The translations under genes were made by a program, and so were the position numbers. The notes beneath the pieces were generated by a model. The model was not told where the DNA came from. It was given only the letters and a program-made list of their open reading frames with translations, and made no database searches. From a virus (Duplodnaviria; Caudoviricetes), in the IMG/VR virus record IMGVR_UViG_2588253764_000003: a stretch of DNA of 64,000 bases; one strand, given 5' to 3'. This document shows positions 7,254 through 54,679 of this stretch, piece after piece; the first letter of the stretch is position 1, and every line of letters starts with the position of its first letter.

Positions 7254-7532
7254 ATGCTAGATTATCATTATAAATCAAAGTGTTATCCAAATAAGAATAC
7301 ACGACTTTTGAAAGAGGCAATTCTTAAAGCGGCTGAATTGGCAGGCAATAAGTATGGGAAAGAGGGGTTAATCTCTTATCTCGAAAAGCAGGCAATAAGA
7401 TGCCCTGCGGCTTATCTAGCGTTGCTTGGTAAGATCTTGCCTTTACAGGTAACAGGAGAAGATGGGGGGGCGATTAAGATCATAGGGCGTGTAGAAATTG
7501 CTCCTTTAATGAATGACGACAAGACAGATTAA
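7254..7532 (+). pseudogene. Terminase small subunit, 5'-truncated by El1 (first about 11 codons derive from the element)
   Basis: PNKNTRLLKEAIL...YLALLGKILPLQVTGEDGG is TerS-like and overlaps the terL start. The element end motif lies inside its 5' end. Confidence 0.75.
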
Positions 7533-8841
7533 GATTGTACCAAAACTTATCCCTATTTTTGCAGGGGATGCTTTGGTACGCGCGGCTTGGGGTGGACGAG
7601 GGTCTGGTAAAACAAGATCATTTGCCTTGATGGCTGCTTTAAAAGGCTATCAATTTGGTATGCAAGGGATATCGGGGACTATTCTTTGTGCACGTCAGTT
7701 TCAAAATTCGCTAGCAGAGAGTTCATTGGAGGAGATTAAGCGGGCGATTGAAGCCCATGACTTTTTAAGCGAATATTACAAGGTTGGAGAGGCTTCGATT
7801 AAGTCAAATGATGGTCGTATAGCTTTTCAGTTTTCTGGACTGGACCGTAATATAGCCAGTATCAAATCCATGGGGCGTATTTTGCTCTGTTGGGTTGATG
7901 AGGCAGAGCCGGTAACAGAAACAGCTTGGCAGACGCTTATACCAACTTTGCGTGAAGAGGGAGATGGGTGGCGAGCAGAGTTATGGGTGACATGGAACCC
8001 ATTGCGAGATAATGCACCGGTTGAAAGTCGGTTTCGCTTTTCAGACAATGAAGCCATTAAGCGTGTAGAGATCAATTGGTCAGACAATCCGAAGTTTCCC
8101 AAGATCTTGAATGAAGCGCGGCTTGATGATTTGAGAAACCGCCCCGAGACCTATAAGCATATATGGGAAGGGGCTTATCTTACAGCGGTTCAAGGTGCTT
8201 ACTATCAAAAAGAAATGTTGGCAGCGGAGCAAGAGGGGCGGATAGGGCGTGTTGCGCGTGATCCTTTAATGCAGATACGCGCCTTTTGGGATATTGGGGG
8301 CACAGGAGCCAAGGCAGATGCGACAGCGATATGGATAGCGCAATTTGTAGGCAGAGAGATTAGAGTGCTTGATTATTATGAAGCACAAGGACAGCCGTTA
8401 TCAGAGCATATCGGTTGGTTGCGTCACAATGGCTATGAGAAGGCACTGATGGTCCTCCCCCATGATGGTGCGACCAGAGACCGTGTGCACAATGTGAGTT
8501 TTGAGAGCGCTTTAAATGATGCGGGTTTTGAAACGCAGGTCATTCCTAATCAAGGGGCTGGGGCTGTCAAAATGCGAATAGAGGCAGTGCGACGTATTTT
8601 GCCTTCAGTTTGGTTCAATGAAGAGACGACTGTAGCAGGGCGTAAGGCACTGAATTGGTATCATGAGAAATGGGATGAGAAGCGTAATATTGGTTTGGGA
8701 GCAGAACATGATTGGTCCAGTCATGGTGCAGATGCTTTTGGATTAATGTGTGTGGGGTATGAACAACCGATGCAGAGACAAAAGAGACAAGCTTATAGCG
8801 GTAGAGAAGCCTATGAGAGTACGTCATGGATGGCAGAATGA
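7513..8841 (+). CDS. Terminase large subunit (PBSX/terminase_3-like), intact
   Basis: Walker A GGRGSGKT, Walker B WVDEAE, TWNP motif, nuclease motifs WDIG and SHGADAF. Confidence 0.93.
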   Translation: MTTRQIKIVPKLIPIFAGDALVRAAWGGRGSGKTRSFALMAALKGYQFGMQGISGTILCARQFQNSLAESSLEEIKRAIEAHDFLSEYYKVGEASIKSNDGRIAFQFSGLDRNIASIKSMGRILLCWVDEAEPVTETAWQTLIPTLREEGDGWRAELWVTWNPLRDNAPVESRFRFSDNEAIKRVEINWSDNPKFPKILNEARLDDLRNRPETYKHIWEGAYLTAVQGAYYQKEMLAAEQEGRIGRVARDPLMQIRAFWDIGGTGAKADATAIWIAQFVGREIRVLDYYEAQGQPLSEHIGWLRHNGYEKALMVLPHDGATRDRVHNVSFESALNDAGFETQVIPNQGAGAVKMRIEAVRRILPSVWFNEETTVAGRKALNWYHEKWDEKRNIGLGAEHDWSSHGADAFGLMCVGYEQPMQRQKRQAYSGREAYESTSWMAE

Positions 8842-10787
8842 TGGATGATGAAGAGCATTTAGAAAAAGAACATAATGCATCAGATCTGTCAACAGAAGGT
8901 TTGTTTCGCAAGTTAGTCAGTTGGTACAAAGAAGATGTGGAGCATGTGAACAAATGGCGTGAACACGCAAGGGAGGATTTTCAATTTTACAATGGTGATC
9001 AGTGGAATGATCAAGATTTAGCGGCTTTAAAAGAGCAACGCCGCCCCGTTATGACCTTTAATCGCATTGCCCCACTTGTGAATGCTGTTGTGGGTTCAGA
9101 ACGCAACAATAAGCGCGAAGTGCAATTTATTCCCCGTCAAATAGGCAAGGCATTGCCCAGTGAATTGCTTACAGGGGCAGCAGAATGGTTTCGTGATATG
9201 GCACATGCGGAATACGCAGACAGTGATGCTTTCCAAGATGCTGTCATCTGCGGTATGGGGTGGACCGATACGCGGCTTGATTACGAAAATAGTCTTGATG
9301 GTGAACCGGTCATTACGCGTTTAGACCCTTTGAAAATGGTTTGGGATAGTGCGGCAGTGCAACCGAATTTAACGGATGCACAACGCATGTGGTATGTAGA
9401 CCGCAAGCCATTAGACGTAGCCAAGCAAATGTTTCCCAAAGCTCATTGGAGTGAACTTAGTGCGGATTGGGCGCGTGATGGGGCTGCTTATGAAGGGGTT
9501 CATCATAATGATCTTGAAGCTTACGATGATGAGAAGGGCATTGATGTTGAAAACGGTCGACGGATGGTCACACTAGTGGAATGCCGTTGGTTTGAAAGCG
9601 AGAGATATTACAAGGCGCCCGATTTGGAAACGGGTGAACTTCGTGATTACAGCGAAGAGGAGTTTAAGCAGCTCCAATGCATGATGCCCGATATCCAAGG
9701 GGCGGCTTTCAATAAAAAGGTTGTAAAACGCGCCTTTTTAGGGAGAAAACTGCTTGAATGCCCTGATCAACCTTTGGTTCCAGCGGGTCAATTGGGTTGG
9801 GAGTGTATCACGGGGTATTTTGATAAGATAGAACGGCAATTTTATGGGGTTGTCCGTCCGACAAAAGACCCACAACGGTGGGCGAATAAATATTTTAGTC
9901 AGGTGATGCATATTCTCAATAGCCAATCCAAAGGTGGGATTATGGCTGAGAGGGGTGCATTTGAAGATGAGAGAGAAGCTGTAAAGAGTTGGAGCAGGGT
10001 AGATAGTATTACGGTTTTAAAAAATGGCGCTTTGGCAGGGGGTAAGATACAGCCCAAACCCGTAGCACAGTTTCCAACCGGTTTTTTCCAACTGTTTAAT
10101 GAAGCGAAAGAAGCAATTAATCAAGTTACAGGTCTCTCACCAGAGTTTATTGGAACGAGAGAAGTTTCACAAGCAGGGATTTTAGAGGCACAACGGCGTC
10201 AATCCAGTCTTAACCTGCTTGCTTGTTTGTTTGATGGTTTGCGTTTGTATCGCAAAAGGCAGGGCAAGATCATTTTGCACCTGATACAGAATTATTTGTC
10301 TGATGGTCGCTTGGTACGGATATCGGGTGAGGAGAATGCGCAATATATTCCGTTGACCCGTGAAGCGGTAATGAGTGTTGATTATGATATTGTGGTGGAT
10401 GATGCGCCCACCAGCCCGAATGAGAAAGAGCGGACCTTTGGCATTATCACGCAATTATTACCGTTGCTTCAAAATGCTGTTACACCGGATATTATGCTTG
10501 ATTTGCTTCGTTACTCACCCTTGCCTGCGTCTCTGCTTAATCGTGTGAGCGAGAAGATGCAACAGCAGCAAATGGCACAACAAGCCCAGCAACAGCAAAT
10601 GAATCCGGAACAAGAAATGAAGTTGCAAGAAAAGCAGCAGGATATTGCTGCTAAAAGTCAGATGCAACAGATGGATTTGCAAGGCAAGCAGATTGAATTG
10701 GTCATGCGTCAAGAGAGAGCAAAATTGGAAGCGGAATTGATGCAACAACGCATTATAAATAAAAATACAATAAAGTCAATATGTTGA
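8826..10787 (+). CDS. Portal protein (P22-like), 3' end interrupted by El2
   Basis: FYNGDQW, TFNRIAPLVNAVVG and a Q-rich C-terminal barrel. The last 11 aa (IINKNTIKSIC) come from the element, and the native tail is at 37089-37181. Confidence 0.9.
   Translation: MDGRMMDDEEHLEKEHNASDLSTEGLFRKLVSWYKEDVEHVNKWREHAREDFQFYNGDQWNDQDLAALKEQRRPVMTFNRIAPLVNAVVGSERNNKREVQFIPRQIGKALPSELLTGAAEWFRDMAHAEYADSDAFQDAVICGMGWTDTRLDYENSLDGEPVITRLDPLKMVWDSAAVQPNLTDAQRMWYVDRKPLDVAKQMFPKAHWSELSADWARDGAAYEGVHHNDLEAYDDEKGIDVENGRRMVTLVECRWFESERYYKAPDLETGELRDYSEEEFKQLQCMMPDIQGAAFNKKVVKRAFLGRKLLECPDQPLVPAGQLGWECITGYFDKIERQFYGVVRPTKDPQRWANKYFSQVMHILNSQSKGGIMAERGAFEDEREAVKSWSRVDSITVLKNGALAGGKIQPKPVAQFPTGFFQLFNEAKEAINQVTGLSPEFIGTREVSQAGILEAQRRQSSLNLLACLFDGLRLYRKRQGKIILHLIQNYLSDGRLVRISGEENAQYIPLTREAVMSVDYDIVVDDAPTSPNEKERTFGIITQLLPLLQNAVTPDIMLDLLRYSPLPASLLNRVSEKMQQQQMAQQAQQQQMNPEQEMKLQEKQQDIAAKSQMQQMDLQGKQIELVMRQERAKLEAELMQQRIINKNTIKSIC
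10737..10751 (+). repeat. att junction (integrase-distal) of El2
   Basis: TTGATGCAACAACGC duplicated at 37074-37088. Confidence 0.92.
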
Positions 10788-53746: not shown

Positions 53747-53770
53747 ACCGGCTTTTAAGCCGGTTTTTTT
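53747..53770 (+). terminator. Intrinsic terminator-like hairpin between the scaffold and capsid genes
   Basis: ACCGGCTT-TT-AAGCCGGT followed by a T-run, preceded by a second hairpin (53722-53742). Confidence 0.6.
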
Positions 53771-53791
53771 ATAGCAAAGAAAGGTGAAACA

Positions 53792-54679
53792 ATGGCAACA
53801 ACACATATAGGAACCCATGATCCGCAATCGGTGAAATTGTGGTCACAGAAATTAAGCAATGAAGTTTTGAAAGCAACGAAAATTGCCCCTCTGATTGGCA
53901 AAAGTTCGAACAGTATTATCCAGCTTTATAACGAAACCCATAAGAGTGCAGGGGATAGTGTCACATTCAGTTTGTTGGTCAATCTGTTTGGAGATGGTGT
54001 CACGCAAGGTGAAACCTTAGAGGGCAATGAAGAAGCCCTTCAATTTATGAATGATCGGTTGGTTATTAATGAGCTTTTACATGCGGCGCGTGTTGCCAAT
54101 AATGACTCGATTGACCAACAGAGAATCCTCCCAAATTTACGTAAGAAAGCCAAAGAAGGCTTGGTTCGCTGGTACGCCAATCGTTTAAGCATCATGTTCT
54201 TTTTGCAGGTGTGTGGTTATACAGCACGTACGATCAGTATTGATGGTCGAGAAGTATATATTAAACCAGTTTATTACGGCTTTAATGAAATTATGGCACC
54301 AAGCAGTGAACGGATTATTCGACCTGATGGGAAAACCAAGGATGAAGACCTTACCGATAAAGCCAAACATAGCTTTAGTTTGAAGCTTATTGATGAAGCG
54401 GTTAAACAAGCGAAACTTGCCAATCCACAAATTTCGCCGGTTCATGTGAATGGTGATGATGTTTACGTTCTCTATTTGCACCCAACACAAGTAATGCAAT
54501 TGCGCACCAATACAGAAACCGGTGAATGGTTAGATATCCAAAAATCGGTTTATGCAACCTCTCGTGCGAAGAACCCAATCTTTGATGGCTCTCTTGGCAT
54601 GTATAATGGTGTTGTATTACGTGAAGCTATTCATGTCACTCACGGTGTAAAATTCACATTATGCATAAAAACACAATAA
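53792..54679 (+). pseudogene. Major capsid protein (N4-gp56/DUF4043-like), 3'-truncated by El4
   Basis: AGDSVTF, GETLEGNEEAL, LYLHPTQ and NPIFDGSLGMYNGVVLRE. Ends abruptly in the element terminal sequence (FTLCIKTQ*). Confidence 0.85.

Follow-up and report, generated by a model that had tools for sequence, protein, structure and literature searches.

Sibling integrative islands in five genes of a P22-like prophage assigned to Bartonella

How does a temperate phage come to have four head genes cut by related insertions, and is the result a locked phage, a dead one or a switch? The question is posed by IMG/VR virus record IMGVR_UViG_2588253764_000003, a single sequence of 127,254 bp classed as a provirus, whose last 64 kb are here called the window. 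An initial annotation of the window had described four sibling elements, each embedded in a different gene of one phage head operon, and had proposed that native heads would form only after all four had excised. The features it claimed are all found at the positions it gave, and the four elements are homologous and were correctly seen, but the record has five of them, the additional one (El0) splitting ssb upstream of the window, with El1 to El4 following in the genes at the terS, portal, scaffold and major capsid positions. In the sequence as it is, ssb and four head genes are interrupted and terL is whole, so that the breaks and the intact terL of the annotation stand, with the corrections that ssb is cut too and that "terS" and "scaffold" are names given by gene order only, the order being that of P22. 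These two genes have no Pfam match and their PHROGs families are function-unknown, and a sequence search of PDB with a scaffold-position homologue gave a chance-level match alone (E 0.47). The explanation favoured here, with moderate confidence, is that five sibling islands of the phage-inducible chromosomal island (PICI) or CP4-57 type each inserted, through site-specific recombination by a tyrosine recombinase, into a different open reading frame (ORF) of a single P22-like Bartonella prophage, leaving what would be a locked state that joint excision would open.

Junctions and the genes they divide

Self-BLAST of the window and of the whole record delimits a repeated unit of 15-26 kb, the copies of which are 74-99.7% identical. 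Across the whole record an 18-base motif marking the integrase end of the unit is found four times and a 15-base motif marking its other end five times, and there are therefore five elements in the record. On both sides of every complete element lies a direct repeat, which begins precisely where the homology between elements ends (the homology of El1 to El2 and El3 stops at 7278). The 15-bp repeat of El2, TTGATGCAACAACGC, is present in exactly two copies in the 127-kb record, at window positions 10737 and 37074, and so is the 13-bp repeat of El1, AATAAGAATACAC, at window positions -8043 and 7290. The shorter repeats of El3 (TATCAGA, 14 copies in the record) and El0 (AAAGGCAG, 5 copies) carry no weight alone, but both sit exactly at the homology boundaries. 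With El4 the integrase and the far junction lie beyond the record end, and the left junction alone is visible.

Excision in silico at the repeats gives ORFs of 151 (ssb), 163 (terS position), 672 (portal) and 299 aa (scaffold position), and these restored frames were compared with ten uninterrupted loci of other Bartonella genomes. This was a check the initial annotation had itself proposed, and the four restored ORFs do find their matches in those genomes. The portal of 672 aa, foreseen from joining the El2 repeats, aligns from residue 1 to 672 in nine of the ten loci and from 1 to 669 in the tenth, at 85-98.5% identity, the alignment with locus L005 running gap-free from 1 to 672 at 98.5%. 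The in-frame product of 299 codons, likewise foreseen from joining the TATCAGA cores of El3, aligns over 1-294 to 1-297 in all ten. For the 163-codon frame the match is 1-163 in L031 and starts at residue 31-44 in most others, where the gene begins later, and for the ssb frame it is residues 5/6-151 in six of eight matching loci, L018 and L062 matching only from residue 67-72. The uncut terL aligns over 442 of 442 residues at 91.6-98.6% in every one of the ten. The cuts fall at codon 75 of 151 in ssb and at codon 83 of 163 in the terS-position gene, and as the DNA stands the portal lacks 30-odd C-terminal residues, the scaffold-position protein 70-odd and the coat 85. Capsid as the fourth target holds in part, in that residues 1-287/289 match 374-codon homologues in all ten loci and the frame beyond residue 289 enters El4; the gene is not restorable, El4 running off the record end. 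Judged from the junctions, the insertions are the work of site-specific recombination and are, on paper, exactly reversible.

By similarity the host of the record is Bartonella, a search with the portal having returned 88 relatives, Bartonella throughout, at identities up to 98%. The phage pieces left between the elements are all on the + strand and comprise ssb, o175 (function unnamed), a small gene overlapping terL, terL itself, portal, the 299-codon gene and the major capsid; in the uninterrupted loci virion and DNA-ejection genes (PHROGs) lie downstream of the capsid. Before the split genes there is an early region with the prophage's own integrase, an exonuclease, Bet/RecT, Ant, RuvC and a primosomal protein. 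Because its own integrase, recombination and primosomal genes precede the split genes, the interrupted phage is an ordinary temperate P22-like prophage and not the core cluster of a gene transfer agent (GTA), and a GTA as the interrupted locus was rejected on this early region. A core locus of the Bartonella GTA (BaGTA) would be expected as one conserved structural cluster that lacks its own integrase, replication and recombination genes, and the interrupted operon differs from this.

The sites are also found empty, as the initial annotation had implied they should be, and most loci have empty sites. Of 75 related Bartonella loci, 17 have uninterrupted DNA across the ssb joint, 26 across the terS joint, 42 across the portal joint and 31 across the scaffold joint. 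The evidence from public runs consists of assembled contigs of relatives, the best run containing 0.56 of the sampled words, and stretches that these contigs leave uncovered were given no weight. A contig of one of these (run X2) joins 37869 to 53485, which is the predicted empty scaffold site, and is taken as an empty site in a related strain and not as excision; a joint in another (run X1, 37008 to 37879) links two similar integrase ends and was given no meaning. The emptiness of these sites in close relatives marks the insertions as either recent or reversible. Occupied sites occur elsewhere too. The ssb site is filled in three other Bartonella species (L062, L069, L076), the portal site in L033 and the capsid site in another provirus, L122, which has the 13 bases CACGGTGTAAAAT, the candidate core of El4, at its integrase-side junction.

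Element genes, integrases and target sites

The genes of an element all point in the same direction and comprise, in order, a P4-type integrase near its edge, a 66-codon helix-turn-helix (HTH) gene, a 495-codon DUF3987 protein and cargo. The HTH protein, here called AlpA-like, matches PHROG excisionase/regulator families (El3 copy, E 1.5e-6), and the DUF3987 protein a PHROG DNA helicase (El3 copy). The usual cargo is a Type ISP restriction-modification (R-M) gene of some 1,650 codons together with three or four YdcK-type beta-solenoid genes. El3 alone is co-oriented with the phage genes, El0, El1, El2 and El4 being antisense.

Compared with the El3 copy, the integrases of the other elements are 82-87% identical; the AlpA-like proteins are 98.5-100% identical. 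The integrases are near-invariant over most of the arm-binding N-terminus and over the last 60 residues, and their differences fall in patches at about residues 170-240 and 296-335, in the core-binding and catalytic domains. On the DNA side, the sequences inside the element ends (the attP arms) are common to the elements and the 6-10 bases beside the core vary with the target. This fits with sibling integrases that read the same arm sites and different cores, and because the arms are shared while the core and the adjoining bases differ for each element, each lineage would appear to have its own target. Closely related integrases (82-97%) with differing core specificity and a fixed arm architecture are rare material on the retargeting of tyrosine integrases.

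A census of such integrases drew on five other Bartonella genomes, 21 IMG/VR loci and the present record. Only tblastn hits that reached 360 aa and 70% identity and were free of internal stops were counted, fragments and integrase hits at 43-55% identity being set aside, and the resulting 45 rows reduce to 38 distinct sequence-plus-site rows. The flank maps into P22-like prophage genes for 25 of the 38, at about 16 sites, which are in ssb, o175, an early gene, terS, terL (two), portal (four), scaffold, capsid and downstream virion genes (five); codon numbers given for sites are approximate, being BLAST alignment starts on locus L009. ARAGORN found no tRNA target in 29 integrase flanks. The majority of mapped prophages have none, one or two elements, and five in one prophage is the maximum met in what is a small sample. 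Among the other arrangements are two elements at two sites of one prophage (L069), a tandem pair at a single site (G006), one element in each of two prophages (G008) and three elements around a decayed prophage whose capsid, portal and terL are frameshifted (G007). A member of the prophage family in G001, a B. grahamii-like complete genome, carries a 90-kb insertion (C1:532,700-622,700, loci L112-L117) and has lost part of its tail-side genes; the insertion spans from the start of a 247-codon virion gene to a 141-codon gene and ends in an intact sibling integrase.

In the integrase tree the copies at one site are sisters for ssb, p486 and o175, and since these three are the only same-site sets that are sisters, a strict correspondence of site and clade was rejected. 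Recombination between co-resident siblings, seen as 99%-identical blocks, is likely to lie behind the partial agreement. El3 and El4, which are mutually inverted and merely 1.2 kb apart, are 99.7% identical over 6.2 kb (43256-49486 versus 57767-63997) and share a second stretch of 1.35 kb (52120-53472 versus 54660-56014), the stretches being 99.3-99.7% identical, and El4 and El1 are 99.6% identical over 2.4 kb. Blocks of this kind suggest recent gene conversion among the co-resident siblings.

Relatives among known islands and competing explanations

A P4-type arm-binding integrase, AlpA and a DUF3987 (YfjI-like) protein are likewise found together in the CP4-57/P4-like islands of enterobacteria. 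In those islands AlpA induces excision, and the targets are tRNA or tmRNA genes. The hijacking genes of P4 are sid, psu and delta, and the Bartonella elements, unlike P4, have none of these three.

The closest functional precedent is offered by the helper-embedded PICIs (HE-PICIs), which the accessible text of Tommasini, Mageeney and Williams (2023; PMC10111431) describes as islands in prophage genes of lambdoid phages; this and the other papers below are compared as far as their accessible parts go. Common to both systems is a small island, equipped with int, AlpA and a gene for replication, that lies inside a prophage gene which its excision would restore; in both, related integrases are also spread over many prophage sites, 14 there and about 16 here. 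Four of the present elements lie within a prophage gene between end identity blocks that restore it, and El4 does so as far as its one junction goes; the integrases (Pfam Arm-DNA-bind_3, Phage_int_M and Phage_integrase) are set beside those of HE-PICIs by their domain architecture. The host here is alphaproteobacterial, however, and the phage P22-like, not lambdoid. There are five elements in a prophage as against at most two, that paper giving one helper with two embedded satellites among 209 HE-PICIs with a mapped helper (208 prophages; PMC10111431), and the view of the initial annotation that no four-deep stack had been described agrees with this. The key genes of HE-PICIs are reported there to be co-oriented with the interrupted late gene (Figure 3 legend, PMC10111431), in contrast to the four antisense elements and one co-oriented element of this record. 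Also unlike what is given for HE-PICIs, early genes (ssb, o175) are targets, the replication gene is of the DUF3987 type, there is no captured late-gene zone, and the cargo is R-M, beta-solenoid and two-partner secretion genes. For SatelliteFinder, in the accessible text, a PICI combines an integrase, an AlpA-like regulator and a primase or replicase with packaging or capsid-morphogenesis genes and has no tail or holin genes, and the gene set found here (int, AlpA-like, DUF3987) corresponds to its ambiguous "Type C PICI" (PMC10085698).

Within Bartonella the islands of the record are the "fha-repeat" of Bartonella grahamii, named in 2009 (Berglund et al. 2009, PMC2697382; Berglund et al. 2010, PMC2847970). 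From the accessible text, that repeat is 10-28 kb long, is bordered by an integrase and phage genes, includes fha/hec in part of its copies, has Sfi18-like gene triplets and differs in presence from strain to strain (PMC2697382). The present elements are similar in length (15,333-26,337 bp, or 15.3-26.3 kb), are 74-99.7% identical to one another, and have three or four YdcK-type genes (the beta-solenoid triplets) and, in El2, an fhaB/fhaC locus with two-partner secretion (TPS) and ShlB/POTRA domains. Where the accessible parts of those papers place the repeat in genomic islands, without att sites, target genes, a split-ORF reading or a link to satellites, the variable fha-repeat islands of rodent Bartonella, with their filamentous-haemagglutinin-type and restriction genes, can be explained as site-specific elements inside prophage genes. 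A literature search, with subscription papers and supplements outside it, returned no paper that names Bartonella islands satellites or maps them into phage ORFs, and the term "fha-repeat" in two papers only. Embedding, reported for late genes in lambdoid phages of enterobacteria, here extends to early genes and to P22-like phages whose host is an alphaproteobacterial pathogen.

What the arrangement would do can be set out in a few steps. In the integrated state the prophage would be without functional ssb, terS, portal, scaffold and coat genes and hence locked. One common signal would excise all the elements together, because the AlpA-like proteins and the DNA upstream of the integrase are almost the same in every element, and we infer excision on such a shared AlpA-type signal given that the integrases are intact, the regulators nearly identical and the repeats perfect. 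Excision would rebuild the split genes and release circles of 15 kb that the phage could package, the islands of some 15.3-15.9 kb being about a third of a P22-size genome, and from the embedding and this size we infer satellite behaviour. The lock with several bolts is most likely a by-product of repeated colonisation, by a family radiating over prophage sites, and not a designed logic gate. Five co-resident siblings make a system in which joint excision, and the locking as opposed to the exploiting of a phage, could be asked about.

Several observations weigh against islands that behave as satellites of this prophage. Searches of the elements with Pfam and PHROGs turned up no gene for packaging or capsid redirection and none resembling terS. 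The DUF3987 gene is intact in El1 and El3 only, El2 having none and El0 a fragment, and the AlpA-like assignment is weak, the HTH_17 score of 22.5 bits lying below the Pfam cut-off of 27. Since four of the five elements are antisense to the phage genes, read-through from the helper of the kind proposed for HE-PICIs cannot drive them, and the composite greatly exceeds a P22-size head, which keeps it from travelling in one piece. In the tree the terL-367/370, portal-638/645 and early-gene pairs are not sisters, the El3 integrase being 96% identical to an integrase at another site.

In the main rival explanation the islands are simply defence and competition islands that use conserved phage ORFs as abundant, dispensable landing places and have killed the prophage permanently, with no helper relation and with spread by, for example, the Bartonella GTA together with recombination. 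Their cargo is indeed of the defence and competition kind with no hijacking genes alongside, El0 and El2 have lost an intact replication gene, the El1 R-M gene is in two pieces, and the 13 of 38 integrase rows outside the reference prophage genes (three of these having no flank), the frameshifted capsid, portal and terL beside three elements in G007 and the tail-side losses next to the 90-kb insertion of the B. grahamii-like genome all point that way. We nevertheless regard it as possible but rather unlikely, given that all five interrupted genes are free of stops and frameshifts once rejoined and are 98% identical to intact homologues, that integrase and AlpA-like gene are intact in four of four visible elements despite the decay of cargo or replication genes in some, that the direct repeats are perfect, and that the recent or reversible insertions have left close relatives with empty sites. 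A switch selected as an AND gate, which is how the initial annotation read the locus, with heads made only after every element has excised, the helper silenced and satellite circles timed to packaging, seems an improbable alternative. Each of the four head genes and ssb is broken and restorable, and cis-control by a single element has been published for HE-PICIs (PMC10111431, accessible text), and yet near-identical AlpA-like regulators suggest one shared input and not independent ones, complementation between genes restored on separate replicating copies could make a strict one-molecule AND unnecessary for particles, and four antisense elements remove the helper-driven cis component. With one element in the early gene ssb, the targets are not head genes only, and five elements are an extreme state where most mapped prophages have none, one or two. 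The selected gate has no support beyond the arrangement itself.

Many Bartonella genomes, including B. bacilliformis, have a second portal/terL locus (L034-L045, L059-L061, L068 and others) that is 56-70% identical to the interrupted one, and which may be a gene transfer agent. The helper could on that account be BaGTA, mobilising islands of 15.3-15.9 kb with a terL and portal paralogous to the interrupted ones, and Berglund et al. (2009, PMC2697382) state that islands BgGI 4 and 5 contain paralogues of the phage cluster II portal and terminase, and that the DNA in particles is 14 kb long. The present islands exceed 14 kb, however, the 56-70% loci are BaGTA by conjecture, and the interrupted operon is part of a complete prophage that has its own integrase along with recombination and replication genes. 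Some genomes have more than one copy of this prophage family, which is 85-98% similar across species, and a BaGTA helper is put as very unlikely. An assembly artefact, in which repeats were collapsed or mis-joined and no stack exists in one molecule, might be suspected from the 99.3-99.7% shared stretches of up to 6.2 kb and from the record end lying inside the 99.7% stretch of El3 and El4. Every junction has its own core with target-matched adjoining attP bases, though, the intervening phage DNA is colinear and keeps its reading frame, and the same kind of junction is seen in independent genomes; because misassembly cannot yield in-frame, end-to-end restorations with element-specific cores, the chance of an artefact is put as negligible.

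The five-island explanation can be widened, much more tentatively and as a proposal that is doubtful as it stands. A Bartonella-wide clade of P4-type integrases, spread over at least 16 sites of P22-like prophages, would make the fha-repeat islands helper-embedded satellites, a shared AlpA signal would open the five-fold lock, and circles with R-M and contact-dependent competition genes would be packaged by the phage or by a related GTA. If so, this would be a main route for host-interaction and defence genes in Bartonella.

Feature coordinates and minor observations

Table 1. Elements, element genes and phage genes, in window coordinates unless marked otherwise. Element lengths include one copy of the direct repeat.
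Feature	Position	Strand	Details
El0	record 37,518-53,405, upstream of window (loci L002/L003)	-	15,888 bp; splits ssb; 8-bp repeat
El1	1-7289, start 8,030 bp upstream of window	-	15,333 bp; splits terS-position gene; 13-bp repeat
El1 Type ISP gene	3-3076	-	two frames (3-2036, 2075-3076); ORF list, tblastn
El1 DUF3987 helicase-like gene, 495 aa	3621-5108	-	Pfam DUF3987, E 5e-80
El1 AlpA-like HTH gene, 66 aa	5539-5736	-	tblastn, 100% to El3 copy
El1 integrase, 388 aa, P4-type tyrosine recombinase	5945-7111	-	Pfam Arm-DNA-bind_3, Phage_int_M, Phage_integrase
terS-position gene, 3' part	7290-7532	+	attR core of El1 at 7290-7302; phrog_11043; restored 163-aa ORF
terL, intact, 442 aa	7513-8841	+	Pfam Terminase_3
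Portal, codons 1 to ~641	8826-10751	+	Pfam P22_portal, E 6e-124; attL core of El2 at 10737-10751; open frame as it stands 8826-10787
El2	10752-37073	-	26,337 bp repeat to repeat; splits portal; 15-bp repeat
El2 beta-solenoid	12280-14478	-
El2 Type ISP	16202-21160	-
El2 fhaC/fhaB-type two-partner secretion locus	22184-32041		downstream orphan modules; TPS domain, ShlB/POTRA
El2 AlpA-like	35323-35520	-
El2 integrase	35731-36918	-
Portal, 3' tail	37074-37181	+	in frame once El2 is removed
Scaffold-position gene, 5' part	37195-37876	+	core TATCAGA at 37870-37876; phrog_24697
El3	37877-53484	+	15,615 bp; splits scaffold-position gene; 7-bp repeat
El3 integrase	38017-39219	+
El3 AlpA-like	39428-39628	+
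El3 DUF3987	40056-41543	+
El3 Type ISP	42212-47185	+
El3 beta-solenoid	48771-51630	+
Scaffold-position gene, 3' part	53485-53709	+	restored 299-aa ORF compared with homologues
Major capsid, codons 1 to ~289 of 374	53792-54653	+	Pfam Phage_capsid_3; candidate core CACGGTGTAAAAT at 54641-54653; open frame 53792-54679, profile positions 2-280 of 376
El4	54654-64000, past record end	-	splits major capsid; non-integrase end; end motif 54673-54687
El4 Type ISP	60071-64000	-	99.9% identical to El3 copy

The first part of the record (1-24,500, loci L001/L002) belongs to a second prophage, related to the first and inverted with respect to it, whose genes include an uninterrupted ssb, Ant, a primosomal protein, a HicB-like gene and different tail-side genes, and the two prophages meet near their integrase ends. 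YdcK-type beta-solenoid genes that are 43-50% identical to the element copies lie in the early regions of both (record 22,194-36,511).

As to the R-M genes, tblastn matches of query residues 1-332 and 325-1657 fall in different frames in El1, where the 333-aa piece has the Pfam domains Mrr_cat_2 and ResIII, and the frame break near codon 330 is a frameshift or a sequencing error. The El3 Type ISP gene is flanked by inverted repeats of 208 bp (94%) at 41714-41921 and 47497-47703, and El4 has a copy of this module as well; the R-M gene may form a separate cassette. In El2 the 3' end of the fhaB/cdiA-like gene is duplicated together with the next small gene (30409-32539 versus 33047-35166, 87.7%), a duplication which resembles the orphan toxin/immunity modules of contact-dependent inhibition loci. 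The sole Rfam match at the gathering score is sRNA-Xcc1 at 14521-14608 on the - strand, which scores 53.9 bits against a cut-off of 53 and lies just upstream of the array of beta-solenoid genes in El2.

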